From assembly GCA_040222015.1 (NCBI GenBank), contig JAVJWO010000047.1, positions 32,001 through 96,000 of the forward strand: DNA of 64,000 bases, written 5' to 3'. Source of the stretch: Coleofasciculus chthonoplastes F2-STO-03 (lineage in GTDB: Bacteria; Cyanobacteriota; Cyanobacteriia; Cyanobacteriales; Coleofasciculaceae). Positions 32,105 to 43,380 of the stretch are shown here, piece after piece. The position numbers were made by a program, and so were the translations under genes. The notes beneath the pieces are model-generated. The model saw only the letters and a list, made by a program, of their open reading frames with translations, was not told the origin of the DNA and ran no database searches. The stretch's first letter is position 1; the number at the start of each line of letters is the position of its first letter.

Positions 32105-33082
32105 TTAAGGTTTTTTCATCGGCGTTTTCTTCCTCTTCTTCTTCGCCTTGCTTTTCTCATAATCAATTTCCCTAAGCTTCTTAGTAATTCGGCTAAAATA
32201 CTCTTGCAGATAGGCTTCCAATGTGGTTGTGTCTTGGGGCTCAAGACCAAAAACCGGATAAGCCTCATCCATGGAAGCCATCATCGGTTTCCCCGTCGCT
32301 AACACCTCCGTGAATGCCAAGCGATCCGCGATATTCCACCCCCACTGAAAGAAGCGGGTAATCTGGCGCATCGCCCGCAAGAAATTAATCGGGAGTCGAG
32401 CAATCCTGGCATCCTTTGCCGAGAGTCGCTCACATAGACTAATAATCTCATCGGCTCGCCAAGCTCGTGTTCCCACAACCGGAAAGATTTTATTTGTCGT
32501 TTCCGGAACCTCAAGAGCGCGAACGGCAAATTTAGCGATATCCTGAGTATCCATATACGCCGTGGGCGCCGCTTTCCCAGTAATCCAAACCGCTTGCCCT
32601 TCCAGGATGGGTACAGCATACTGCATAATCAGCCCTTGCATAAACCCAGCGGGCTGCAAGATGGTGTAGTTTAATCCCGATTCTGCCAGAAACACTTCAG
32701 TACACCGTTTAATCTCCATCAACGGCACCTTGGGGAATTTCTCACAATTGAGAATCGAGAAAAAGACAAAGCGTTCCACTCCCGCCGCCGCCGCCGCTTG
32801 AATCAGCGCCACCTTGCCATCCCAGTCTACCTGTTTAATCGTCAGAGATCCTGTTGGTCTAGAGGTTGCTGCATCAATCACGGCGGTTATGCCTTCAAGA
32901 GCAGGGGGTAACGTCTGTGGTTCACACAGGTTACCTTGAACCAATTCCGCTCCCCATTCTTTCAAAAACGTGGCTTTCCTAGGGCTACGCACTAGACAGC
33001 GTACCTGATGACCTTCATCCAGCGCCCGACGAACCACCTGTCTTCCTAAAGTGCCTGTTGCACCGACGACCAACAAGTTCAT
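32105..33082 (-). CDS. Ycf39-like atypical SDR / NmrA family NAD(P)-binding protein
   Basis: VGATGTLGRQV, FLKEWGAELV, VDWDGKVALIQAA and DRLAF; adjacent to petM. Confidence 0.85.
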   Translation of the reverse strand: MNLLVVGATGTLGRQVVRRALDEGHQVRCLVRSPRKATFLKEWGAELVQGNLCEPQTLPPALEGITAVIDAATSRPTGSLTIKQVDWDGKVALIQAAAAAGVERFVFFSILNCEKFPKVPLMEIKRCTEVFLAESGLNYTILQPAGFMQGLIMQYAVPILEGQAVWITGKAAPTAYMDTQDIAKFAVRALEVPETTNKIFPVVGTRAWRADEIISLCERLSAKDARIARLPINFLRAMRQITRFFQWGWNIADRLAFTEVLATGKPMMASMDEAYPVFGLEPQDTTTLEAYLQEYFSRITKKLREIDYEKSKAKKKRKKTPMKKP

Positions 33083-33286
33083 TTATAAAATTTTGCCTGT
33101 AAACTTAACATTTCTATATAATTCTATCAGAATTTGTCATTGGTCATTGGTCTTTTGTCCTTTGTCATTCGTCATTCGTCGTTTAGTCGGGGCGGGTGTA
33201 GGGTGCGTTAGCGAAGCGTAACGCACCATTGCAAACTGACACACCGAGCGAAGTCGAGGTGTTCCCCATCACCCCATCACACAAAT

Positions 33287-33391
33287 CTACCCTTCGCCGC
33301 CTTGGATTTTGAGTAACAAAAATCCCAAACCCATACCCACGAGAATTAGAGTAAAGGATAGTACAGCAGCATTGAAAATTTCAGCGTTCAT
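33287..33391 (-). CDS. petM: Cytochrome b6f subunit PetM (missing from the ORF track)
   Basis: Own translation: [42 protein letters not shown] upstream. Confidence 0.92.
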
Positions 33392-33463
33392 GTGTTATCT
33401 CCTCTGGCGATCGCTAAACAGGCTCTAAGTTATAAGATTATCGTGATTGGGTTCAAATCGAAA

Positions 33464-34564
33464 ATGAAAACAGAAAAACATTTGTTTACACAATCAAGCC
33501 ATCCCCCCCGAGGGCGTCCCCGTTTAGCTGTCACCTTGGGTGATCCGGCGGGGATTGGTGCGGAGGTGGTGCTGAAGGCGTTGGCAGATGAGCAGATGAC
33601 TCAGGATGCTGATATAACAGTCATTGGCAGTCGCTCGTTGTTACAGAAGGCGTATCAGGAATTGCGGCACACCGTAGACAGTACCACGCCTCTAGCTGAA
33701 CCGGATAACCTATCCATATTAGATATCCCTTTAGACGCCTCAACCGAACGTCAGATTACCCTGGGGCGGGGAAATGCGGCGAGTGGAGAGGCGAGTTTTG
33801 CTTACTTGAAACGTGCGATCGCGCAAACCTTGGCGGGTGAGTTTGAGGGAATTGTCACCGCGCCGATTGCCAAGTCATTCTGGAAAGCCGCCGGACATGA
33901 TTATCCCGGTCAAACCGAAGTGCTAGCACAGGCGGCTGGTGTAGAGCGATTCGGGATGTTATTCGTCGCGCGATCGCCTCATACCGGGTGGCTATTGCGA
34001 ACCCTGTTAGCCACAACCCATATTCCCTTGGATCAAGTCCCCCATACCTTAACCCCAGACTTGATGAGAACAAAACTGGATTTACTGGTGGAGTGCTTAC
34101 GGCTGGAGTTTGGCGTAGAAACCCCTCGCATTGCCATTTCTGGGTTAAATCCCCACAGTGGCGAACAGGGACAATTAGGGAGTGAGGAAAAAGACTGGTT
34201 GATTCCCTGGCTCGAACAGGAACGACAGCAACGTCCTCAGCTAAAATTAGATGGACCGGTACCACCCGATACCCTTTGGGTAAAAGCGGGTCAAGCCTGG
34301 TACGATAATCCGGCAATCCCCAATCTCCCCGATGCATACTTGGCACTTTATCATGACCAAGGCTTAATTCCGGTTAAACTCATGGCATTTGACCGAGCGA
34401 TTAACACCACAATTGGTCTACCCTTTGTGCGAACCTCTCCGGATCACGGTACAGCTTATGATATTGCCGGTCAGGGAATTGCTAATCCTACCAGTATGAA
34501 AGCGGCGATTCAACTAGCGGCACAATTGGTGCGACACAGGCAATTTTTGTCGGGGCGGGTTTGA
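33464..34564 (+). CDS. pdxA: 4-hydroxythreonine-4-phosphate dehydrogenase
   Basis: [35 protein letters not shown] and [14 protein letters not shown]; start uncertain. Confidence 0.97.
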
Positions 34565-34761
34565 CGGATAAGTAGGTAGGGATAATAAAAGTTAACGGCA
34601 CAGATCGTCATTACTAAACCCACCCTGCCAAATCATCAATAATTATCATATTTAATTGATTCTGTCAAGAGGTGATTCCGATAAAGCTAGATGTTAGCGT
34701 AGTGGAGCTAGTCCCTCTTTTTCGGCTGAGTCATAGGATAGCAGTAGGATCAAGCAGAGTA

Positions 34762-37700
34762 ATGATAGAACAGGATCTCAAAGGCGATCGCTCCTTAGTT
34801 TTAGAAACAGCATGGCAGCGATATGCCCAGCTTAAAACCCAAGCTGCAATCACTTATAGACAATATTTGAGTCTTCGGGGCGGATCAATTTTGCTCAGTG
34901 CGATCGCCACATTCCTAGCGGTGGTTATCGCCAGTACAGATAGGCAACTCATCGCCGCCCCACCGGGACGACTATTAATCATTGGTTTAGTTTTAGTTCC
35001 GATTATCAATGTGATCATTTTGGCGATTAGTCGCAACCTGCAACAAGGACAGTATTGGCAAATCCTCAATGCTGGTGCTGAGGAAATTCGCAAAACGATC
35101 TATCTGTATCGGACATTGCTACCGGGACAAGAGAATCGTCATCAATGGTTGAATGAACGAGTTACAGCGATTCAACGCCAGGTATTTGATAGTATTGGCA
35201 GTGATTTAGTAATGCAACCCTATACCGGTAATCTTCCCCCGGATGAGAGGGGCGAATACCAAAATCATGATCCGGGTTTTACGGATTTACTGCCCCCAGA
35301 TTACTTGCATTATCGCCTAGAAGCGCAACGGCAACAATATACCCAAGAACTCGCCCAACTCAACACCACTCGCACTCGCTTACAAATTATCCTGTTCAGT
35401 TTGGCTGGATTGAGTGCATTGTTACCCGTTTTAGGGGTGAGTGTCGGTGTCTGGGTGGCGTTTACCCTGTTTTTGGCAACAGCATTCAGCCTGTGGTTAG
35501 AACTAGGACGAATCGACGATCGCGTGAATGCGAATAACCAGCTAATTGTAGCTCTCAACATGATTCGCGATCGCTGGCAAACGTTAACCGCCAAAGAGCA
35601 GACAGGCGAGGAATTTTTTCAGATCGTGCTGGCGACAGAAAATACACTCTGGAATTACTATAGTCAACCAATTTCCGAACGGCGTCAAATTGCCACACCC
35701 TTGCTGGAGCCGAGTGATGATTTACTCACAGAAGCGCTCAAAGAACCTGTTGTCGAACTCCCCGAAGAATCAAACAAAGTTGAAACCCTAGCCGTTGCCG
35801 CCCAAACCCCCAAAGAAACGGTAACGTTGGAGGTAGTCAAAAAAGTTGAAGAACCTCCTCAGGAGCCGCCGAAAAAGGGATTACCTCATGCCTTTGTGGT
35901 CATGCCCTTTGGACGAAAAAAAGGACCCGATGGGCTTTGGATTGACTTTAACAGCATTTATCGAAACTTAATTAAGCCAGCCTTAGAAGAGGCAGGATTT
36001 GAGTCATTTCGTGCCGATGAAGAAATGGTTAGCGGCGATATTTTGACGGATATGTTTCAGGAGCTATTGCTCGCTGACCTAGTTCTGGCAGATTTAAGCA
36101 TTGATAATGCCAACGTATTTTACGAGTTAGGCATTCGCCACGCCCTGCGTAAGCGCGGCTTGATTCACATCCAATGTGGTCGGGCTTACATGCCTTACGA
36201 CATTTTCAATGTGCGAACACTCCCCTATCACTGTGATGATAGCGGTTGTCCTGACCCAGAGTATTTACACAAAGACAAGCAGGCGATCGTGAAAATGGCG
36301 CGTGCCACCTGGGATTCGGACAAAAACCGCATTCATAGCCCAATTTTCAGTATTTTAACCGGACTGGATGAACCCGATCGCAAGTCCTTGCAAACCCCCC
36401 TGGCAACCGGATACTGGCAGGAATACAAAGAATGGCAAGAGCGGGTGGTGCTTGCCCAGCGACAAAAGCGGATTGGGGATGTCTTGTTATTAACCGAAGA
36501 GGTAAGTAATCCCCTAATTAAAGAAGAAGCCCTGGCGGAAGCAGGGAAAGCCCTAAAAAATCTAGGCAATCATGCCCTAGCGCTCAAAGAATATCGCCAA
36601 GGCTTGAAAATCAACTCCAAAAATTCTGAGTTTCGTAAAGAAGAAGCCTTTCACCTCAGCCGCTTAAAGCAATTTGATGAAGGGATTGTCAAATTAGAAT
36701 CATTGCTCCAGGATGAACCCAGAAATATAGATGCACTCTGTTACTTAGCTCGCATTTACAAAGAAATGTGGCGCAATGAATGGAAAGAAATCTCAGATCA
36801 GCCGGAGCGGTTGAGCGCTGCCTATGATGCCGCTCACTTACTCAAAAAAGCCGTTGATACCTATCTCAAAGCCTATCGGCTGAATCACAATCACTATTAT
36901 GCTGGGATTAATGCCCTAACCTTATTAGTCCTTCTCGATTATTTAGTCCAGCATTGTGACATCGATAGTGATGCCGAAGGAGAAGCCCTGCGGCAACAGT
37001 TGCCCAATCTCAAAGGGGCGGTTCAATTCTGCCTGGAAAGTGCAGTTAAGACCAATGAAAATGATACCTGGGCGTATGTTTCCTTAGGAGATTTAGCGGT
37101 ATTAGCAGCCGACCATCCGAAACAGGTAATGCGAGCCTATAAAAAGGCGCTAACGCTACTTTGGAACAATAAATTTGCCCTAGAAGCCACCCTAAATCAA
37201 CTGGAACTTTTGGCGGCGCTTTCTTTCCGCCCGGAATATGTACAAGCAGGACAAGTGGTGATCCAAGGGGAACTCGACCGACTGAACAATCAAACGGCAA
37301 TAACGGCGGATGAGAGCGAACCAGAACCCACACAAGTTATCCTCTTTTCCGGTCACATGATTGATAGTCCCACCAGGGAGCAACCGCGTTTTCCCGCCGC
37401 CATGGAAAATGAGGCGCGGCAAAAAATTGAGGAGACTCTGGATAAGTTAAAACCCAGTACCAATTGCTTGGCAATTGCTCCCGGTGCAGCCTGTGGCGGT
37501 GATATTTTGTTTATCGAAGCCTGCTTAAAGCGGAATATGAAGGTGGAGGTATTTCTGCCCTTTACCCCAGCTCAGTTTATTCTCGAATCCGTTAGTTTTG
37601 CTGGGGATAACTGGGTATCCCGTTTCTATACAATTCAGAATCACCCTAATGTGTCGTTTAATCTGCAACCGGAACGATTGGGAGACGTGCCGATAGGGGA

Positions 37701-37923
37701 TAATGCCTTCGAGCGCAATAATCGCTGGGCGTTGTATTCTACCTTAATGTATGGCATTGATCGCGTGCGACTGATTGTTCTGTGGAACGGTAAAGGCGGT
37801 GACGCGCCCGGAGGTACAGGTGACATGGTTCATCAGGTACGCCACTTAGGAGGCGTGGTTGAGCATATTGATACCACCAAATTTGACTACTGGAACACGA
37901 GGACGAAGGTATTAGCCAGTTAA
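34762..37923 (+). CDS. Multidomain protein: two SLATT (DUF4231-like) membrane domains, NDT/deoxyribohydrolase-like domain, TPR-S (DUF4071-like) repeats and C-terminal SLOG domain
   Basis: Two 2-TM units (W..L...AEEIRK..YLY; YL..RL..Q..Y); AFVVMPF..RADE..ADLVLADLS..NANVFYELGIRHA; TPR region with YYAGINA; LFSGHMID..GAACGGDILF..WNG..GGTGDMV. Start at 34762 or 34672. Confidence 0.8.
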   Translation: MIEQDLKGDRSLVLETAWQRYAQLKTQAAITYRQYLSLRGGSILLSAIATFLAVVIASTDRQLIAAPPGRLLIIGLVLVPIINVIILAISRNLQQGQYWQILNAGAEEIRKTIYLYRTLLPGQENRHQWLNERVTAIQRQVFDSIGSDLVMQPYTGNLPPDERGEYQNHDPGFTDLLPPDYLHYRLEAQRQQYTQELAQLNTTRTRLQIILFSLAGLSALLPVLGVSVGVWVAFTLFLATAFSLWLELGRIDDRVNANNQLIVALNMIRDRWQTLTAKEQTGEEFFQIVLATENTLWNYYSQPISERRQIATPLLEPSDDLLTEALKEPVVELPEESNKVETLAVAAQTPKETVTLEVVKKVEEPPQEPPKKGLPHAFVVMPFGRKKGPDGLWIDFNSIYRNLIKPALEEAGFESFRADEEMVSGDILTDMFQELLLADLVLADLSIDNANVFYELGIRHALRKRGLIHIQCGRAYMPYDIFNVRTLPYHCDDSGCPDPEYLHKDKQAIVKMARATWDSDKNRIHSPIFSILTGLDEPDRKSLQTPLATGYWQEYKEWQERVVLAQRQKRIGDVLLLTEEVSNPLIKEEALAEAGKALKNLGNHALALKEYRQGLKINSKNSEFRKEEAFHLSRLKQFDEGIVKLESLLQDEPRNIDALCYLARIYKEMWRNEWKEISDQPERLSAAYDAAHLLKKAVDTYLKAYRLNHNHYYAGINALTLLVLLDYLVQHCDIDSDAEGEALRQQLPNLKGAVQFCLESAVKTNENDTWAYVSLGDLAVLAADHPKQVMRAYKKALTLLWNNKFALEATLNQLELLAALSFRPEYVQAGQVVIQGELDRLNNQTAITADESEPEPTQVILFSGHMIDSPTREQPRFPAAMENEARQKIEETLDKLKPSTNCLAIAPGAACGGDILFIEACLKRNMKVEVFLPFTPAQFILESVSFAGDNWVSRFYTIQNHPNVSFNLQPERLGDVPIGDNAFERNNRWALYSTLMYGIDRVRLIVLWNGKGGDAPGGTGDMVHQVRHLGGVVEHIDTTKFDYWNTRTKVLAS

Positions 37924-38067
37924 ATAAATGTAGAGACGCGCCATGGCGCGTCTCTACAGGCTATCCTTGTTGCTCTTAAGGATTGACGTGGCTTAATCTT
38001 AAGATCATTGTCCTCGATGACACGGTTAAACTGATGGTTAAAATATTCTCTCTCTAGAGTCAATTCA

Positions 38068-38826
38068 ATGAAAAACTCCTGTACTTTAACCTTTAACAAT
38101 AACCTCACCGCCCATGTTGTTCAAGTCCACAGTCCCACGGCGTTGGCGGCGGCGTTGCACCAGCTTGGTCTTGACCAACCCCGTCCTACCCTGGCGTTAG
38201 TGGGTGGAGCGAGTAAGATTAGTGAGTCTGACAAAAATGATTTGCGACGCATTTTTCTCGAAGTGATTGCGCCTCTGGCTGAACAACTGGGAGTGGTGGT
38301 TGTCGATGGGGGGACGGATGCGGGGATTATGCAATTTATAGGTCAAGCGCGGACAATGATTGGTGGGACATTCCCATTAATTGGTGTCGCCGCGATTGGT
38401 ACGGTTATGCTTCCTGGTGTTAAAAGCATGAATGCTGATGCGGCGATGCTAGAGCCAAATCACACCCACTTTGTCTTAGTTCCAGGCTGCAATTGGGGAG
38501 ATGAATCCCCCTGGTTATCTGAGATTGGTAGTCATTTAGCTAAGGGGTTACCTTCGGTGACGATTGTGGTGAATGGTGGCGAGATTACCTGGCAGGATGT
38601 GGCGCAAAGTGTGAAAGCTAAGCGACCTGCGATTATCCTAGCTGGGAGTGGACGAACGGCTGATAAATTGGCAGCCGCATTGCAGGGAGAGGTAACCGAT
38701 GAACGAGCCACAGATTTAGTGGCATCGGGACTTTTGCACGCTATTGATGTGAGTAAAGATGCAGCAGCACTGGCTCATCTGATTGCACAGATGCTTTCTC
38801 GACCTGCGGATGCGTTGCCCGAATAA
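38068..38826 (+). CDS. LSDAT (TRPM-type SLOG domain) protein
   Basis: LVGGAS, VDGGTDAGIM, LIGVA, LEPNHTHFVLV, WGDE, VNGG and AGSGRTAD. Confidence 0.88.
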   Translation: MKNSCTLTFNNNLTAHVVQVHSPTALAAALHQLGLDQPRPTLALVGGASKISESDKNDLRRIFLEVIAPLAEQLGVVVVDGGTDAGIMQFIGQARTMIGGTFPLIGVAAIGTVMLPGVKSMNADAAMLEPNHTHFVLVPGCNWGDESPWLSEIGSHLAKGLPSVTIVVNGGEITWQDVAQSVKAKRPAIILAGSGRTADKLAAALQGEVTDERATDLVASGLLHAIDVSKDAAALAHLIAQMLSRPADALPE

Positions 38827-39091
38827 ATTGTCTCCAAATAAGGTGGGAAGAAGCGTTGACATTGATTCGGTTAAATCGGAGGTTTTAGAGTAAGTGTAAT
38901 TCGGAGATTGATGCTAATGTATTTTTTTTTATGACATAATAAAAATTAAGTTGATTGAGACGTATACCGCTGATCCTGTTTGAATGGTGCATAAAGCATT
39001 TGTTGCTAAAACTAAATTATTCGCTGGGTCATTTCATAATGTCTTAAGCCCACCCTTGTTGTATAGACTCTTGCAGATCAAGGCATAGAAC

Positions 39092-40489
39092 GTGGCAAAA
39101 AAGAACTCTTACAGTCAATATCTTAGGCAACACCTGAGTAACTTAATCGAGCAGACGGACTTGCCCACCTTGAAAAAGGACTTTATGAAAGCCCGGTGGT
39201 TGGATCAAGTGCTGTGGCTGGAAGGACGGGCAACCAAGGAACGCGATCGCCATCACTCTTTGAGGTTACTAACGATTATCGGCGGTGTTATCGTTCCCGC
39301 TCTGGTGGGATTCAAAAGCCCAAATCCTCAGATCCAGGAAATTGTCGGCTGGAGTGCGTTTGGGTTGAGTCAAGCCGTAGCCGTTTCCGCCGCCGTGGAA
39401 GAATTTTTCGCTCATGGGGAAAAATATAAGCAATTCCGCAATACAGCCGAAAATATGAAAATTGAGGGCTGGCAATTCCTGCAAATGGCTGGACAATACA
39501 GTCAGTTTGAATCCCACGACGATGCTTATGCTACGTTTGCCTATCACGTTGAGCAGTTGATTCAGAAAGACGTGCAGGGTTTCGTCGCTCAGTTTGAAGA
39601 AACAGAAAAGAACAGCAAGCAAAAGACAGAAGAAACAGTGGCTCAAAATTCGGCTCTAGCCCTGGAGAATCTCAACCAGCAAATGGAGTATCAGGAGCAA
39701 TTGCGGCGACTTGAAGCGGAAAAACGCCGCTGGCGAGAAGAGAAAGAGCGTTTGGAAAATGAGCGTTCAGCGTCCCTGGAAGATGCGGAAAACAATGGGG
39801 AAGAGGTCCAGACTACCCCGGTTACTCTCGAAGACTTGCCCCCGCTAGGTGCCGCCGCAATGGTTTGGTTTGAAGAAGACGAACCGGAAGAACCCAAAAA
39901 ACAAGCATCGATGAATGGTCAAGGAAATAGTGAGCCAGCCAAACCCGCCGTACCCCAACTGATTACACCCGAACAAGCGTCCAAAATAATGGATTGTCCC
40001 CTAGACGATAGCCAGAAATATTTACCGGGGGTATTGGAGGCGCTGCAAGACTATGACATTTTGGATAAGCAGGTGCTAATTGGTTTACTGGCAACGGTGC
40101 GAGTGGAAACCAACGGGTTTAAACCCATTAATGAGTTTGGTGGAACAAAATATTTTACTAAACATTATGAAGGACGCCGGGATTTAGGCAACGTGCATCC
40201 AGGAGATGGAGCGAAGTATCACGGTAGAGGCTACATTCAGATTACGGGGAGAGCCAATTATCGCACGTATGGGCAAAAATTGGGGGTGGATTTGGAGAAT
40301 AATCCTGAATTAGCTCTAGACCCGGAAATTTCTGCTAAGATACTAGCTTGTTACTTCAAAGATAGAGGAGTCGCCACTGCTGCAAAAGTGGGAGATTGGC
40401 GTAAAGTCAGAAAATTGGTGAATGGCGGCTATAACGGTTGGGATGTTTTTTCTAAGTATGTTGAGAAAGGTAAGGCGGTAATTGGTTAA
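39092..40489 (+). CDS. SLATT (DUF4231) - coiled coil - glycoside hydrolase family 19 fusion
   Basis: N-terminus RWLDQVLWLE, two TM segments and FRNTAENMKIEGWQF. C-terminus VRVETNGF..INE, GDGAKYHGRGYIQITGRANY, NPELA and VNGGYNG. Confidence 0.88.
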   Translation: MAKKNSYSQYLRQHLSNLIEQTDLPTLKKDFMKARWLDQVLWLEGRATKERDRHHSLRLLTIIGGVIVPALVGFKSPNPQIQEIVGWSAFGLSQAVAVSAAVEEFFAHGEKYKQFRNTAENMKIEGWQFLQMAGQYSQFESHDDAYATFAYHVEQLIQKDVQGFVAQFEETEKNSKQKTEETVAQNSALALENLNQQMEYQEQLRRLEAEKRRWREEKERLENERSASLEDAENNGEEVQTTPVTLEDLPPLGAAAMVWFEEDEPEEPKKQASMNGQGNSEPAKPAVPQLITPEQASKIMDCPLDDSQKYLPGVLEALQDYDILDKQVLIGLLATVRVETNGFKPINEFGGTKYFTKHYEGRRDLGNVHPGDGAKYHGRGYIQITGRANYRTYGQKLGVDLENNPELALDPEISAKILACYFKDRGVATAAKVGDWRKVRKLVNGGYNGWDVFSKYVEKGKAVIG

Positions 40490-40492
40490 GGT

Positions 40493-40693
40493 ATGGAACC
40501 CACAGAAGAAGTTTTTTTTCAAGTTCAGGAACTCAAGGAAGCGATTCAGGAACTTAAAGAGCAGATCAAAGCAATGCAATCGATAAATGAGGTGCAGCAA
40601 GAGTCAATTACGTCTTTAATTGCTCTGTCTCAGAAGCAAACGACGGTGATTGAGCAGCAAACCTCTGTGATTCAGCAATTGGTGAGTCAGTAA
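40493..40693 (+). CDS. Small Gln-rich coiled-coil protein
   Basis: 66 aa with heptad pattern; starts 3 nt after the SLATT-GH19 stop. Confidence 0.6.
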   Translation: MEPTEEVFFQVQELKEAIQELKEQIKAMQSINEVQQESITSLIALSQKQTTVIEQQTSVIQQLVSQ

Positions 40694-40755
40694 GGGAAAG
40701 ATACAGCAGCACGTTCGTAGTCAGCACGAAGCGTGCTGATAAATAGGGTCTATCA

Positions 40756-43380
40756 TTAATGCAATACTCTGACCAGCTCCTTAATTTTGGCAGACTGCCG
40801 ATCCTTGAATTGATCAGGGAAACTTAATTCTAGCGCGATTTTATTCGGCGAAGAACTACTGCTATCCCCCGGAACCAGAATTTCTAATGAGAGAATTTGG
40901 GTTAAAAATCGCTCCCGTGATTGGCTAATGGCGTCTTGACTTAACAGCAAGCCCACTAAGGGTTTTTCTTGCTGCATTTTCTTTAAATTATCAGGCTTAA
41001 GTAATTTAGCATTCGATGTAATAGAATCATCGAGTTCTAATCGCAAACTTGTCGCCCCAATTGCGGTCACTGTTGCCAAATAAAAGTCTCCTTCCCAAAA
41101 CAATTGAGCTGAAGCTTGAACCCGTTTGCGGACTTTTACTGCCCCTTTATCCACCTTAAATTCCTGGAAAGCACGGAAAAGACCTGTAGCCAAAAATCCT
41201 AAAGACTGCAACGGTTTATCCACATATTCCCGTGTTTGTGAATACCATTCCTTCACGTCGGAATACGTCACTAAGGTTAAATTATCTCGCTGGGATTGGG
41301 TGACATTAATAAACTTAACCGCCAATTCCATTTGATGCTCATTGACCGACTTTGCCACCACAATCTGAGCCTCCATAATCACCCTTGCCCCATAATCACC
41401 CACCAATTCAACTTCGATTTCATCGGGTAAATTGGGTTGACCTTCGACTTCTAAGATCATTCGAGTTCCGGTTTCCGAAACATCCAGCGTCACGCCACTC
41501 CAACTTTTGTCATAGCTGTAAATTGTTGCCCCCAGCCGTCGCCGTAAGCGGTGGGCGGTGCGTTCTTGGGGTTGTTCAAAGGCAACCAGTAATGCTGCCA
41601 TTAACAGAGTTAAGTTAAAAACACACCACAAGGCGTTAACCAAAACTGCCTCTGTATCCTCTGGACGTAGGATCAACCAAAAAGGAACAGACGCTAATCC
41701 TAACACCACCAAACCGGTTATACTTAACAAACCCCGTACAGATTGCCAATCAAAATTGGAGAAGCTAAATTCCCGTTTAATCAGGGTCATGTCTTTGTCC
41801 GTGACGTTAAAAGAACCCAGATTGGGATTAATTAACGCCATTGTCGTCACATACCCCGCCTGGAATGCCATGACAAATTCAAAAATTTCATTCCAGAAAG
41901 AAAAGCGCACATGCTTATACGTAATGTAGTTGGTATTAAGGGATAAGAGAATATGAGGAAGTGCATAAGCCAAGGTTTCCAATCCCAAACCCTGAATCGG
42001 GTTGATTCTAAACAATAAGAATAGGGTTGGCGCGATCGCATAAATCAGTCGGGGATAACCGTAGAAGAAGTGAGATGTGGCGCTGAAATAACAAATCCGC
42101 TGGGGAATCGTCAAGTTTAGCTTACGGTTTAACACTGGATTTTCAATCCGCAAAATCTGCGCCATACCCCGCGCCCATCGGACTTGCTGACCCACATAAG
42201 AGGAAAAGTTCTCTGGGGCGAGACCCGCAATCATGATTTTATCGTAGTAAAATGACTTGTATCCCAGAGAATGCAATCGGAATGCAGTATGACAATCTTC
42301 AGTTACGGTTTCGGTAGCAATCCCACCCACTTGTAGGGCATATTCTTTGCGAATGACTGCCGCTGAACCACAGAAGAATGCCGCATTCCAAAAGTCATTT
42401 CCTTTTTGGAGGACTTTATAAAATAACTCATTACCAACTGGAATCCTGCCATCTGTACGCAGGTTCCGTTCAAAAGGATCGGGATTAAAAAACCAGTGGG
42501 GGGTTTGCACAAAAGCCAGTTTTGGATCAAAAAAGAAGCCCGCTACGTGTTTAAGGAAATCTCGGACAGGAATATGATCACAGTCAAGAATCATGACCAA
42601 ATCCCCTTTGGTGCGACGAAACGCGGTATTAATATTCCCCGCCTTGGCATGTTCGTTATTATCCCGCGTCATCATCGTGCAGCCAACTTCTTCGCACATT
42701 TTTCGTAATTTTTCGCGACGGGCTTTATATTTCTCGGCTCGACCATCATCTAAAACATAAACCTTTTTTTTGTCTTCCGGATAGTCAATTGCAATGGCTC
42801 CAATTGCCGTTTTGCGGACAATTTCGACATCTTCGTTATAGGTGGGAATATAGATATCGACCTTGGGCCACTGGTCTTGAGGATATGCCGACAAATCGAC
42901 CGGTTCACGGTCTTGAATATGCAAGGTTTGAAAATAAGCTAGGACTAGGGTGAGGATGGCATAGAGTTCAGCGATCAACAGCAATACACAAAATAAGCCA
43001 TTGATAAAGGCATCAAAGTTGAGCGTGTAGTTGAGGCGATAGTAAAGATATCGAGATGTGGTGACTAAACTTAACCACACTAAAAAGAGGTGATAGTACT
43101 CACTAATTTGTTGATCATTAACCCGGTTTTCCGCTCGCACAACCACTTGCCCGATCGCCAAAACAAAAAAAGCGACAACCCCTTGCTGCCAAACCTTGAG
43201 TGGGGTAATCACTAGGGGAATCGAAATCACCAGTAGAAATAGAACCAGCCATTTTAAATGACTGATACCAATGCGTTCCAATGTACGGTCAAAAAACCGA
43301 GGCAGAACATCAACTAGCCAGTCAGTGGCAAAAGGGCGTCGGGGACGAAATCGCTGGAATTTAGATGAAAATGAGGACAT
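40756..43380 (-). CDS. bcsA: Cellulose synthase catalytic subunit (GT2 plus PilZ)
   Basis: PTYNE, LDDG, HAKAGN, DCD, QTPH, FFCGS, TED and QQVRW; PilZ motifs RTAHR and DVSETG. Start at 43380 or 43386. Confidence 0.93.
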   Translation of the reverse strand: MSSFSSKFQRFRPRRPFATDWLVDVLPRFFDRTLERIGISHLKWLVLFLLVISIPLVITPLKVWQQGVVAFFVLAIGQVVVRAENRVNDQQISEYYHLFLVWLSLVTTSRYLYYRLNYTLNFDAFINGLFCVLLLIAELYAILTLVLAYFQTLHIQDREPVDLSAYPQDQWPKVDIYIPTYNEDVEIVRKTAIGAIAIDYPEDKKKVYVLDDGRAEKYKARREKLRKMCEEVGCTMMTRDNNEHAKAGNINTAFRRTKGDLVMILDCDHIPVRDFLKHVAGFFFDPKLAFVQTPHWFFNPDPFERNLRTDGRIPVGNELFYKVLQKGNDFWNAAFFCGSAAVIRKEYALQVGGIATETVTEDCHTAFRLHSLGYKSFYYDKIMIAGLAPENFSSYVGQQVRWARGMAQILRIENPVLNRKLNLTIPQRICYFSATSHFFYGYPRLIYAIAPTLFLLFRINPIQGLGLETLAYALPHILLSLNTNYITYKHVRFSFWNEIFEFVMAFQAGYVTTMALINPNLGSFNVTDKDMTLIKREFSFSNFDWQSVRGLLSITGLVVLGLASVPFWLILRPEDTEAVLVNALWCVFNLTLLMAALLVAFEQPQERTAHRLRRRLGATIYSYDKSWSGVTLDVSETGTRMILEVEGQPNLPDEIEVELVGDYGARVIMEAQIVVAKSVNEHQMELAVKFINVTQSQRDNLTLVTYSDVKEWYSQTREYVDKPLQSLGFLATGLFRAFQEFKVDKGAVKVRKRVQASAQLFWEGDFYLATVTAIGATSLRLELDDSITSNAKLLKPDNLKKMQQEKPLVGLLLSQDAISQSRERFLTQILSLEILVPGDSSSSSPNKIALELSFPDQFKDRQSAKIKELVRVLH

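Follow-up and report, generated by a model that had tools for sequence, protein, structure and literature searches.

A SLATT-GH19 fusion of filamentous cyanobacteria that looks like a built-in, signal-triggered self-lysis device

The fusion gene and its neighbourhood

The window analysed here is a stretch of 64,000 nucleotides from Coleofasciculus chthonoplastes F2-STO-03. On its forward strand the listing of open reading frames has one single frame at 39092..40489, which encodes 465 aa plus a stop and starts with GTG, exactly where a preliminary description of this DNA had placed a SLATT-GH19 fusion. From N- to C-terminus the protein comprises a two-helix module of the DUF4231/SLATT type, a single long helix, an acidic linker that is disordered, and a GH19 domain. 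Just 5' of the frame there is an in-frame stop at 39086, so the frame has no upstream extension, and since residues 1-31 are in addition conserved throughout the aligned homologues, the GTG can be taken as the genuine start. The database copy P0002, which has 434 aa and begins at M32, was probably called too short.

Comparison with two congeners shows that the frame is under purifying selection, with an overall dN/dS of 0.13-0.17. All parts of the fusion are constrained, most strongly the GH19 part (0.04-0.08) and least the long helix (0.33-0.37). The fusion is intact in all three genomes of the genus, and a chimera of the assembly can be ruled out because intact orthologues are present in many genomes as well as in metagenomes. 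We found no description of a SLATT-GH19 fusion in the searchable literature. PADLOC contains no model that fits it, and its one match to the protein, a JetC-like one with an E of 0.007, is spurious.

It should be stressed that the gene has a context that the preliminary description did not mention: it forms an operon-like row together with the gene of a SLOG sensor and a giant gene that combines SLATT, TIR-like and TPR-S parts. The giant gene is a 1083-aa open reading frame at 34672..37923 (forward strand), whose true start is probably codon 31; its copy in the ESM Atlas begins at residue 31. It has many relatives (3260 found). Pfam identifies a SLATT_1 2TM domain at aa 211-328 (E 4e-12) and TPR-S repeats at aa 635-752 (E 5e-17). 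Between them, at about aa 405-560, a TIR/DrHyd-like Rossmannoid domain is tentatively assigned on the basis of a PADLOC match to a TIR effector (aa 405-520, E 8.7e-5) and an AF2 model of aa 385-600 with a pLDDT of 62.5. Foldseek ranks the MilB N-glycosidase and the SARM1 TIR domain highest for this model. When aa 380-600 were compared by BLASTP with a real triple-TIR protein, no similarity was seen, and a PDB sequence search with the same residues gave no match. The C-terminal domain, at about aa 860-1083, is unassigned, the ESM Atlas offering only a weak YpsA-SLOG lead. Pfam searches at E up to 5 with aa 1-210, 380-600 and 860-1083 returned nothing useful.

The spacer that separates the giant gene from the SLOG gene contains a perfect 28-nt palindrome (37930..37957), a terminator-like match with 13 pairs that occurs once in the window. 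The depth of the bin 37926-38182 is 5- to 14-fold that of the flanking bins in all four metatranscriptome runs, the metatranscriptome contigs break at the palindrome, and one contig joins 34571 to 37928. The giant gene is absent from the congeneric genome G454 and from a contig in metatranscriptome run X2. The palindrome looks like a dispersed repeat at the edge of a presence/absence polymorphism of the giant gene.

The SLOG protein, encoded on the forward strand at 38068..38826, has 252 aa and matches Pfam LSDAT_prok with an E of 7.9e-72, while PADLOC gives no match to it; we presume it to be a receptor of a nucleotide signal. A 265-nt spacer separates this gene from the fusion. Rfam, scanned over 33000-41200 at E up to 1, returned 0 matches, and the spacer therefore contains no riboswitch or known RNA. 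A scan for promoter-like and terminator-like sites was uninformative, with 11 sites against 11.1 expected and 11 against 9.2, respectively.

On the other side, 3 nt beyond the fusion's stop codon, a gene for a 66-aa coiled-coil protein begins (40493..40693, forward strand). Homologues of it lie directly downstream of the SLATT-hydrolase gene in 8 of 22 related loci, and in three of these loci (L031, L051 and L053) their start overlaps the stop of the fusion. The protein has no family in Pfam, NCBIfam or PHROG, and a profile search of 1.84 billion representatives gave 14 matches, of which 13 are short proteins with lengths of 65-106 aa. We presume that this small, dedicated family of short proteins provides a partner for the fusion. 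The predicted complex of the two proteins scored 0.00 in both runs, a value that has no bearing on binding either way. In all four metatranscriptome libraries, a contig from a relative of about 95% identity spans the SLOG gene, the fusion and the start of the 66-aa gene, which establishes contiguity in RNA libraries and not transcription.

The other neighbours are pdxA and cellulose-synthase-like genes; the locus stands among housekeeping genes and not in a recognisable defence island. The preliminary description had also remarked that no prophage gene is nearby, and this agrees with our scan, in which neither the window neighbourhood nor the scanned genes of the related loci contain phage structural genes.

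Membrane module, stalk and linker

The SLATT/DUF4231 module occupies aa 1-180 (39092..39631, forward strand), as delimited by HMM matches, hydropathy, charge and the AF2 model. Its membership of the SLATT superfamily follows from scores above the curated profile cutoffs both in Pfam (DUF4231, PF14015, aa 38-143, E 6.9e-28, 97.5 bits against a cutoff of 24.7) and in NCBIfam (SLATT_1, NF033634, E 1.9e-26, 92.6 bits against 41). Within the module, K/R-rich N-terminal helices are followed by TM1 (about aa 56-74, 39257-39313), a loop of 11 almost uncharged residues, TM2 (about aa 84-106, 39341-39409) and a conserved membrane-proximal helix. Kyte-Doolittle values in 19-residue windows exceed 1.0 at aa 53-79 and 83-107 only, and the highest window past aa 120, at 0.97, falls within the GH19 core. 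AF2 folds the region as a helical hairpin (26-72 and 79-106) with further helices behind it, at a pLDDT of 82-95 across most of the module. Both hydropathy and AF2 give the two TM helices and the helical region that characterise the superfamily, with charge as the sole guide to sidedness.

Next in the chain is a single long charged helix at aa 142-227 (39515..39772, forward strand; AF2 secondary structure), which is roughly 13 nm long. It leads into a disordered linker at aa 229-292 (39776..39967, forward strand), recognised from pLDDT (below 50 at aa 229-282), composition and the alignment of homologues. The linker is acidic, as residues 233-300 comprise 13 D/E and 4 K/R, and its length among 58 homologues varies between 58 and 119 aa, with a median of 80.5. 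A short motif, LPPLG..A..W, is found at aa 249-259 and is visible in most of the rows listed for the alignment of these homologues, with L249 and L252 nearly invariant.

The main features that the preliminary description had read in this half of the protein have thus held up: the N-terminal 2-TM SLATT domain in Pfam, NCBIfam, hydropathy and AF2, the charged coiled coil and the acidic linker in the AF2 model, pLDDT and the count of charged residues, and the lack of a signal peptide in the polar, K/R-rich character of the N-terminus. The first 53 residues are polar, and 11 K/R are found in aa 1-56.

A hairpin with both ends inside (N-in/C-in) would agree with the two hydrophobic helices, the abundance of K/R at the N-terminus and the almost complete lack of charge in the loop. 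If the chain is arranged in this way, the GH19 enzyme would stay in the cytoplasm. Averaged over 58 sequences, the number of K+R is 3.9 in the N flank, 2.1 in the loop and 2.8 in the C flank.

Another option is that TM1 alone spans the membrane (N-in/C-out) and that TM2 lies outside, as in signal-anchor-release endolysins, which would give a constitutively periplasmic, membrane-anchored lysozyme that is already at the wall and is controlled in some other way. TM2 is indeed rich in Ala, Ser and Gly and marginally hydrophobic, with Kyte-Doolittle values of 1.1-1.5, it contains the conserved polar residues S93, Q94, S99, E103 and E104, and in 23 of the 58 homologues the loop has as many K+R as the C flank. 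However, AF2 packs both helices as a hairpin with high confidence, the loop measures just 11-25 residues across the 58 homologues, no Sec-type signal is present, and unlike in SAR endolysins some 190 residues of helix and linker precede the enzyme. The available account of the SLATT family defines it, moreover, as a 2TM hairpin whose C-terminal helical region is cytoplasmic (PMC9812332), and the same applies to the ThsH model. We consider the periplasmic arrangement to be unlikely.

The GH19 domain and the enzymes that take its place

The C-terminal domain, at aa 293-465 (39968..40486, forward strand), is an endolysin-type GH19 domain and a predicted muramidase, as indicated by PDB sequence matches, Foldseek, conservation and dN/dS. 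Pfam Glyco_hydro_19 (PF00182) scores 31.5 bits against a cutoff of 25.5, covering profile positions 103-149 only, and PHROG 181, annotated as endolysin, matches with an E of 1.6e-48. In the PDB sequence search the PWe2 endolysin (9ms7) is found with an E of 5e-21 over aa 307-462 and the SPN1S endolysin (4ok7) with 2.3e-15. The AF2 model shows the GH19 lysozyme-like helical fold (pLDDT 88-96 at aa 291-465), for which 9ms7 is again the best Foldseek match (TM 0.91, rmsd 1.7 A) and all of ranks 1-5 are peptidoglycan-active GH19 proteins.

The motifs quoted in the preliminary description, VET (338-340), INE (346-348) and GRGYIQITG (378-386), are all present, and the catalytic dyad is intact. E339 (40106-40108, forward strand) and E348 (40133-40135, forward strand) align with the two glutamates of 9ms7 and are each conserved in 58 of 58 homologues, as are Y359, Q383, T385, R440 and N444. 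Their spacing of nine residues is the same as that of E51 and E60, the glutamates reported for the muramidase PaGH19Lys (PMC12329726). PWe2, SPN1S and PaGH19Lys (9eoi) share with the fusion the GH19 fold, the glutamates 9 apart and an active-site pattern of Q-x-T plus N, but, unlike the fusion, they occur as free soluble enzymes of about 180-220 aa from phages or prophages. At the position before the first glutamate, 53 of the 58 homologues have V, I or L and the other 5 have H, as does, by the published account, PaGH19Lys (H50).

These data make the domain a predicted endolysin-type muramidase; that it cleaves murein is suggested by sequence, fold and domain partners. A chitinase as the main function was considered and rejected, because endolysins outrank chitinases by both sequence and fold and because the fusion partners of the same GH19 clade are all peptidoglycan-related. 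Elsewhere, this clade is fused to PG_binding_1, LysM, NlpC/P60, M23, VanY, CHAP and a VgrG spike. One survey files some LysM-linked cyanobacterial GH19 proteins under chitinases (PMC8547705).

The preliminary description had called the protein a single-chain holin-endolysin. The label can stand as an account of how it may work, but it does not hold as a statement of family membership or of a phage cassette context, since the SLATT part stands about 190 residues from the enzyme and no phage genes were seen nearby. Phage lysis systems (holin plus endolysin, pinholin plus SAR endolysin, and M4Lys, an endolysin that has its own transmembrane domain and is reported to lyse cells with neither holin nor Sec, PMC7143992) likewise join a membrane-lesion element to a muralytic enzyme that has no secretion signal. 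The fusion differs from them in that it is host-encoded and outside a prophage, carries an N-terminal SLATT immune domain instead of a holin, keeps its membrane part far from the enzyme, and would be timed by a nucleotide signal and not by holin accumulation.

One may then ask whether the locus is a domesticated phage-type lysis cassette, in which SLATT replaces the holin and the product serves the release of vesicles, DNA, bacteriocins or tailocin-like particles, with no signalling immunity involved. The closeness of the GH19 domain to phage endolysins would agree with this, as would the match of phrog_7395, a PHROG of unknown function, to the SLATT part (E 1.1e-12) and the report that a related Pseudomonas GH19 endolysin serves a pyocin cluster and vesicle release (PMC12329726). 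However, while 993 phage records match the GH19 part, 0 of the 993 cover at least 80% of the protein, neither the window neighbourhood nor the scanned related loci have phage or tailocin structural genes, and 17 of 22 loci contain a linked gene of the SLOG, TIR or TPR-S kind. A cassette of this kind is, in our judgement, quite improbable.

The preliminary description had proposed to look for the same architecture elsewhere and had noted that a fusion unique to this assembly would speak against it. The opposite was found: SLATT plus GH19 occurs in 68 of the best 120 database relatives, and the fusion is widespread in filamentous cyanobacteria. Among these 120, the organisms named for fusions are all filamentous cyanobacteria except for one MAG labelled Cyanothece. 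The same SLATT head is joined to a GH24 phage lysozyme in 20 of the best 120 relatives, which come from Nostocales, and GH24 is its partner in L148 and L157 as well. In L040 and L041 it carries a C39-like peptidase plus GH19, and in L048 a C39-like domain alone, with a separate GH24 gene downstream. The alignment shows that the SLATT module is the sole part common to all fusion types. For the C-terminal domain of about 110 aa in the SLATT paralogues of L040 and L041, the assignment as a small Cys/His wall peptidase was dropped, as Pfam and PDB sequence searches gave it no support. A search for longer relatives gave no SLOG-SLATT-GH19 triple fusion among its 42 matches, all 42 of which concern the GH19 part only.

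All identified partners of the SLATT head are wall hydrolases. This points to the wall as the target and to SLATT as the means of reaching it. With at least three hydrolase types (GH19, GH24 and C39-like) on the presumed cytoplasmic end of one head, nature can be said to have done the experiment, and this grafting implies that a SLATT lesion would give a folded enzyme access to the periplasm.

The reverse has also been considered, that is, a GH19 domain that stays in the cytoplasm as a sensor or binding module and gates SLATT, for example in response to muropeptides or wall precursors during phage attack. The variable domain of many conflict systems acts as their sensor, and we know of no mechanism for moving a tethered domain across the membrane, a point that counts in favour of this option. 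However, the catalytic dyad and the active-site residues show no variation in 58 of 58 homologues, and the interchange of GH19, GH24 and C39-like domains fits swappable weapons better than sensors of one ligand. A sensor role therefore seems to us very improbable.

Signalling genes and a possible route to lysis

We now consider the genes that accompany the fusion and its relatives. In 17 of the 22 SLATT-wall-hydrolase loci there is an adjoining gene for a SLOG protein (9 loci), a triple-TIR giant (12) or a TPR-S giant (3), while 5 of the 22 have no signalling gene within the fetched flanks; the 22 include close kin, and the counts thus overstate independence. By gene neighbourhood the fusion is tied to a SLOG sensor, to TIR-class signal generators whose sensor repeats are TPR-S or WD40, and to the small coiled-coil protein. 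As a candidate TIR signal generator, the window has a low-confidence TIR/DrHyd-like fold, while related loci have a triple-TIR giant in 12 of 22. Association with SLOG, SMODS or TIR genes, typical of the SLATT superfamily, is thus seen both in the adjoining SLOG gene and in 17 of 22 related loci. In L155 and L156, SLOG is even fused directly to the same type of SLATT, beside TIR-WD40 genes.

The SLATT superfamily and the pair of LSDAT-SLOG and SLATT genes were reportedly described by Burroughs et al. in 2015 in Nucleic Acids Res, and their names live on in Pfam PF14015, PF18181, PF18184 and PF18171. The present locus resembles that pair, with a 2TM SLATT above cutoffs, an adjoining LSDAT_prok SLOG gene and single-chain versions among the relatives. 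To judge from their descriptions, known SLATT proteins are either bare membrane effectors or joined to nucleotide-related domains, whereas here a wall hydrolase is attached through a long tether at the presumed cytoplasmic C-terminus, and the next gene encodes a dedicated, presumed partner of 66 aa.

A recent preprint (10.64898/2025.12.03.692087) describes SLATT proteins as effectors that kill the cell. How they do so is put there only as 'thought to' form membrane-breaching assemblies, and type VII Thoeris is said to consist of a TIR protein and the SLATT effector ThsH, with cADPR as the signal. The toxicity of DRT10 is likewise reported to require SLATT. The similarity to type VII Thoeris lies in the TIR-class gene beside a SLATT effector, for which signal-induced oligomerisation into a membrane-breaching assembly has been proposed, and in the triple-TIR giants that adjoin relatives of the fusion. 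The differences are that an extra SLOG protein is present here, that the effector carries a muramidase, and that the TIR parts belong to giant proteins whose sensor parts are WD40, CHASE2 or TPR-S, the TIR-like domain of the window being a weak assignment.

The preliminary description had suggested a latent suicide effector, and this idea is strengthened by the SLOG and giant neighbours and by the triple-TIR giants beside relatives. Our reading, which we hold to be probable if by no means secure, is that the fusion is the killing effector of a Thoeris-like TIR/SLOG-SLATT nucleotide-signalling suicide system typical of filamentous cyanobacteria, a single conflict system whose purpose could be abortive infection or programmed cell death. 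The purifying selection on all parts, strongest in GH19, counts in favour. Against it count the lack of a canonical TIR in the operon of the window, the absence of the giant gene from G454 and from the X2 contig, the 5 of 22 loci with no signalling gene, and the housekeeping setting together with the lack of a fitting PADLOC model.

In such a system, the hairpin at rest would be N-in/C-in and the muramidase cytoplasmic and harmless. Upon infection or damage, a TIR-class enzyme would make an ADP-ribose-derived signal, which would be bound either by the SLOG protein or by the cytoplasmic face of SLATT, and the SLATT protomers would then assemble into oligomers that form a lesion in the membrane. 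The tethered muramidase would reach the murein through the lesion or beside it, possibly after its release by cleavage at the conserved linker motif, and the loss of membrane integrity would turn into outright cell lysis. The net result would be a host version of the holin-and-endolysin pair in one signal-gated polypeptide.

The most demanding part of this scheme is that SLATT lesions would be holin-sized, passing proteins and not merely of ion scale, so that the single chain with its muramidase would be a host nucleotide-gated executioner for 'lysis from within'. We put this forward as a tentative proposal, on balance doubtful. No tethered enzyme is known to us that passes through the lesion it has itself helped to make, in this case a folded domain of 19 kDa. 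If it were true, an infected or damaged cell could be cleanly excised from the filament, and one would have a molecular handle on sacrificial, necridium-like cell death in multicellular cyanobacteria. The fusion is a candidate executioner for altruistic lysis of single cells within filaments, and a compact, signal-gated lysis module in one gene might also be useful for controlled lysis of cyanobacterial production strains.

The same signal-gated SLATT-muramidase could, alternatively, be a regulated autolysin, used not for antiviral defence but for developmental or physiological sacrifice or wall remodelling, for instance in filament breakage, necridium-like cell death or hormogonium release. 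This would suit the filamentous habit of the named organisms with fusions (bar the one Cyanothece-labelled MAG among the best 120 relatives), the housekeeping neighbours in the window and the intact gene in 3/3 genomes of the genus. A signal-less M15 wall peptidase (M15_3), which is the divergent neighbour in 6 loci, would also fit a role in wall remodelling. On the other hand, SLOG proteins, triple-TIR proteins with WD40 and TPR-S giants are described as hallmark parts of conflict systems, and the C-terminal enzyme differs by lineage and the gene content even within the genus, which is commoner for immunity than for core developmental genes. We regard the autolysin as improbable.

Finally, the killing effector can be compared with other conflict systems that employ wall hydrolases. 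Kaur et al. (2020, PMC7159879) proposed that lysozyme and papain-like wall peptidases, attached to effector-associated domains, serve conflict systems of multicellular bacteria as effectors, and lysozyme-coupled, PANGU-like defences have been reported in a preprint (10.64898/2026.04.06.716658). They have in common with the present case that signal-less wall hydrolases are the presumed effectors beside TIR/WD40-type genes, but those effectors lack an evident route to the wall, whereas here the hydrolase is joined to a membrane-breaching domain. The fusion may therefore supply the delivery step that is missing for the effectors of PMC7159879, and, if the lesions indeed pass proteins, it would explain how signal-less wall hydrolases of other conflict systems reach their target. 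From the same GH19 clade, a signal-less protein composed of C39-like, PG_binding_1 and GH19 parts adjoins WD40 giants, with a TIR match in L034.

The fusion protein and its SLATT end

The SLATT-GH19 fusion is encoded by a single open reading frame, placed by the ORF listing exactly at 39092..40489 on the + strand, with a GTG start and 465 residues. An in-frame stop at 39086 excludes an upstream extension, and residues 1-31 (MAKKN...) are kept in all aligned homologues; the GTG is therefore the real start of the gene. The database copy P0002 has 434 residues and begins at M32, leaving out 39092-39184, and judging from the sequences this public call is probably too short. Relatives carry the database name 'DUF4231 domain-containing protein', occasionally 'phage-related lysozyme' or 'predicted chitinase'.

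The preliminary description had reported three catalytic-type motifs and a SLATT domain with two transmembrane segments, and both are correct. The motifs lie at residues 338-340, 346-348 and 378-386. The SLATT-clan family DUF4231 matches residues 38-143 (Pfam, E 6.9e-28), NCBIfam SLATT_1 scores 92.6 bits against a cutoff of 41, and there are only two hydrophobic segments (53-79 and 83-107), with nothing comparable C-terminal to them. In the AlphaFold2 model, built with 58 homologues as input (mean pLDDT 81.8), a helical hairpin (26-72 and 79-106) with further helices to residue 130 is followed by an unbroken single helix (142-227), a stretch with pLDDT below 50 (229-282) and a confidently predicted globular domain (293-464).

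The window protein has four K/R in the 12 residues of the N-terminal flank, none in the 11-residue loop, which is flanked by one lysine (K75), and three in the C-flank; the family means are 3.9, 2.1 and 2.8. This distribution suggests an N-in/C-in hairpin, so that the predicted muramidase would be held in the cytoplasm at rest. The weak hydrophobicity and polar character of TM2, whose polar residues are invariant across an 18-sequence alignment covering all fusion types, lend some plausibility to a single-anchor topology with a constitutively periplasmic enzyme. Overall, such a topology appears quite improbable.

The 86-residue helix is ca 13 nm long, and the disordered linker, 58-119 residues in homologues, extends the reach further. 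This length suits an enzyme that remains tethered. Instead, the LPPLG..W motif conserved within the linker could be a candidate cleavage or docking site.

An endolysin-type GH19 domain

The GH19 assignment made in the preliminary description is borne out by sequence and by fold. Pfam Glyco_hydro_19 matches residues 372-417 (31.5 bits, cutoff 25.5) and PHROG 181 'endolysin' matches the protein with E 1.6e-48. Among solved structures, the closest by sequence is the PWe2 endolysin 9ms7 (E 5e-21, residues 307-462), followed by the SPN1S endolysin 4ok7 and other phage or prophage lysins, while chitinases rank lower, from about E 1e-7. The fold search returns 9ms7 at TM 0.91 and rmsd 1.7 Å, and all of the first five ranks are GH19 proteins active on peptidoglycan. 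E339 and E348 align with both glutamates of 9ms7, and their spacing of nine residues equals that of E51 and E60 in PaGH19Lys, which the accessible part of its report presents as a demonstrated muramidase (PMC12329726). The enzyme part is an endolysin-type GH19 domain and a predicted muramidase. Excerpts of a GH19 survey class some LysM-linked cyanobacterial GH19 proteins as chitinases (PMC8547705).

E339, E348, Y359, Q383, T385, R440 and N444 are all invariant in the homologues (58/58 for each), and the GH19 part has the lowest dN/dS among the segments (0.039 and 0.076 against two congeners). With the catalytic glutamates kept in this way, a role of the domain as a sensor is extremely hard to credit. 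Elsewhere the same GH19 clade is fused to PG_binding_1, LysM, NlpC/P60, C39-like peptidase, M23, VanY, CHAP, amidase_2, M15 and a VgrG spike. The GH19 part is also matched by 993 records of the phage collection, which would suit a domesticated lysis cassette; none of the 993 covers at least 80% of the fusion protein, and we regard a role as such a cassette as highly improbable.

Relatives and genomic neighbours

Among 5.8 billion proteins searched, 8000 candidates were scored and 577 of them were hits; the best 120 were classified. DUF4231 is joined to GH19 in 68 of these 120, from Coleofasciculus, Spirulinaceae, Leptolyngbya, Leptothoe, Moorena, Lyngbya and one MAG labelled Cyanothece, so the fusion is not unique to this assembly. 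In another 20, from Anabaena, Trichormus, Nostoc, Calothrix, Scytonema and Sphaerospermopsis, this N-terminal module precedes a GH24 phage lysozyme (PF00959). The other 32 have SLATT-clan families alone in precomputed annotation, and some of them (e.g. P0074, P0078, P0082 and P0087) align with a GH19-like C-terminus.

Whole-genome searches and fetched loci add further forms: SLATT with a C39-like peptidase and GH19 (L040, 772 aa; L041, 732 aa; L158), SLATT with a C39-like peptidase and, downstream, GH24 as a gene of its own (L048), and SLATT with GH24 (L148, L157). In the 286-aa SLATT protein of L034, the 365-aa one of L047 and the paralogues of L040 and L041, no enzyme is recognisable. No longer triple fusion was found among 42 long relatives. 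In the 18-sequence alignment, the common region is the first ~185 residues only (30-60% identity). On these comparisons, the fusion is a conserved family with a swappable enzyme part. In L040 (8411-9871), L041 (11192-12700) and L158 (6574-7932), the gene immediately upstream of SLATT-C39-GH19 encodes a further SLATT paralogue, which ends in a conserved ~110-aa domain with Cys and His motifs that has no match in Pfam or PDB.

In the window, the giant gene (34672-37923), the SLOG gene (38068-38826; 252 aa, LSDAT_prok E 7.9e-72), the fusion gene and a 66-aa coiled-coil ORF (40493-40693) share one strand. Neighbours within the fetched flanks were counted at 22 SLATT-wall-hydrolase loci (the window, L031, L040, L041, L048, L051-L057, L148-L154 and L157-L159), selected by match to the fusion protein independently of their neighbours. 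SLOG occurs at 9/22, a giant with a triple-TIR module at 12/22 and a TPR-S giant at 3/22; at least one of these is present at 17/22, and none within the flanks of L031, L048, L051, L056 and L157 (5/22). It is important to point out that these counts represent recurrence rather than statistics, as many of the loci are closely related (among others, three belong to this genus and three to one family). The triple-TIR is joined to WD40 repeats in all four fusion-locus giants scanned (L041, L149, L151, L152) and to CHASE2 in that of L148; WD40 is among the five families listed for the L040 giant, and those of L054, L055, L057, L150, L158 and L159 were recognised through tblastn alone.

SLOG lies upstream of the fusion in the window and downstream in L053-L057, and this varying gene order argues that the linkage is functional, not merely inherited. 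Moreover, LSDAT_prok SLOG and DUF4231 SLATT form one chain in L155 (8833-10215, - strand, 460 aa) and L156 (8297-9646, + strand, 449 aa), both adjoining TIR-WD40 giants; by sequence, these lend Rosetta-stone support to a direct SLOG-SLATT partnership. In a sister genus (L047), the TPR-S giant, SLOG and SLATT form an operon as in the window, but with a SLATT lacking the enzyme.

The giant protein (1083 aa) contains SLATT_1 and TPR-S, with a PADLOC TIR match (E 8.7e-5). Its middle domain is predicted, in a low-confidence model (pLDDT 62.5), to be a Rossmannoid sandwich, with the MilB N-glycosidase and the SARM1 TIR domain as best PDB neighbours; the accessible text of PMC9503650 defines the TIR/DrHyd/SLOG class to which this fold is assigned. 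Residues 860-1083 (37249-37920) form a highly conserved C-terminal domain without a match in the Pfam search; of the named clusters in the ESM Atlas, YpsA-type SLOG comes closest (score 0.83), which is a lead only. As for the public record, the giant is the opposite case to the fusion, its ORF beginning 30 codons upstream of the recorded start.

Four metatranscriptome libraries hold a ~95%-identical relative, as assembled contigs that show neither transcription nor a single transcript. In each run, one contig over 37963-40590 takes in SLOG and the fusion gene and reaches into the beginning of the 66-aa gene, which is evidence that natural communities of microbial mats or saline habitats contain this arrangement; the giant gene is covered by a separate contig. 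A perfect 28-nt palindrome lies between the giant and SLOG genes at 37930-37957; the observations here also take in 34562-34571, upstream of the giant gene. In 4/4 runs, depth in the bin 37926-38182 is 5- to 14-fold that of the flanking bins, and contigs end there. One contig of run X2 fuses 34571 directly to 37928, without the giant gene, which is also absent in a congener (G454, locus L153) and is thus not obligatory. From these observations, the giant gene appears to be a presence/absence polymorphism with a dispersed repeat at its edge.

The 66-aa gene begins 3 nt past the fusion stop codon. A homologue lies immediately downstream of the fusion in 8/22 loci, its start overlapping the fusion stop in L031, L051 and L053, and a divergent analogue comes after the GH24 fusion of L157. 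Searched with a profile of the family, 1.84 billion representatives gave 14 matches, 13 being proteins of 65-106 aa. In four loci a conserved pair of ~110 and ~447 aa, for which no Pfam family matched, replaces it downstream of the SLATT-lysozyme gene (L148 10207-12034; L149 6551-8280; L150 11159-12872; L159 6899-8616). In six loci, a Peptidase_M15_3 protein of ~400 aa, without signal peptide or hydrophobic segment, is encoded divergently upstream of SLATT-GH19 (L031 8340-9587; L051 4490-5683; L054-L057), with a 67% identical orthologue on another contig of the own genome (G000:C69:59897-61087). This protein may act as another wall hydrolase that lacks a signal and profits from a SLATT lesion; alternatively, plain inheritance may account for the synteny.

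Proposed mechanism and known systems

A signal-gated mechanism is plausible, in which a TIR-class partner would make a signal, SLOG would read it and thereby drive assembly of SLATT, and the resulting lesion would give the tethered enzyme access to murein. The strongest indirect argument for this route to the wall is that the same SLATT end bears wall hydrolases of at least three kinds. The proposal of the preliminary description, a latent suicide effector, is partly supported and is strengthened by the genomic context. The fusion would be a natural experiment on membrane breaching by SLATT effectors and a candidate executioner of single-cell lysis within filaments. The fusion could also be a developmental autolysin, which next to SLOG and TIR-class neighbours seems unlikely.

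The SLATT family and its pairing with SLOG were reportedly covered by Burroughs et al. in 2015. In the literature searched, we found no published description of SLATT joined to a wall hydrolase, and that study with its supplements may contain one. In the available portion of a preprint (10.64898/2025.12.03.692087), SLATT proteins are killing effectors of CBASS, TIR and SLATT constitute type VII Thoeris with cADPR as signal, membrane oligomerisation is predicted for its SLATT protein ThsH, and TIR-made ADP-ribose derivatives are bound by SLOG domains in type I Thoeris. DRT10 toxicity, as far as the accessible text goes, requires SLATT. For multicellular bacteria, the sections available of another study propose, as conflict-system effectors, lysozyme and papain-like wall peptidases that lack secretion signals (PMC7159879), and excerpts of another preprint likewise propose wall-hydrolase effectors in PANGU-like systems (10.64898/2026.04.06.716658). 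While the SLATT family, SLOG-SLATT pairing, TIR with SLATT and signal-less wall-hydrolase effectors are already known, the SLATT-wall-hydrolase fusion, not found in print, is apparently new.

Finally, a gene trio recurs in L033, L034, L037 and L038 (also L032, L035 and L036). One member combines C39-like, PG_binding_1 and GH19 in a single protein, another is a small C39-like protein, and the third is a WD40 giant of ~970-1000 aa, which in L034 has a TIR match. Neither hydrolase has a signal peptide, and the two have in common a conserved ~50-residue N-terminal domain (MSISLVNVAKYY...). The trio may be an adaptor-coupled variant of the wall-hydrolase effector idea.
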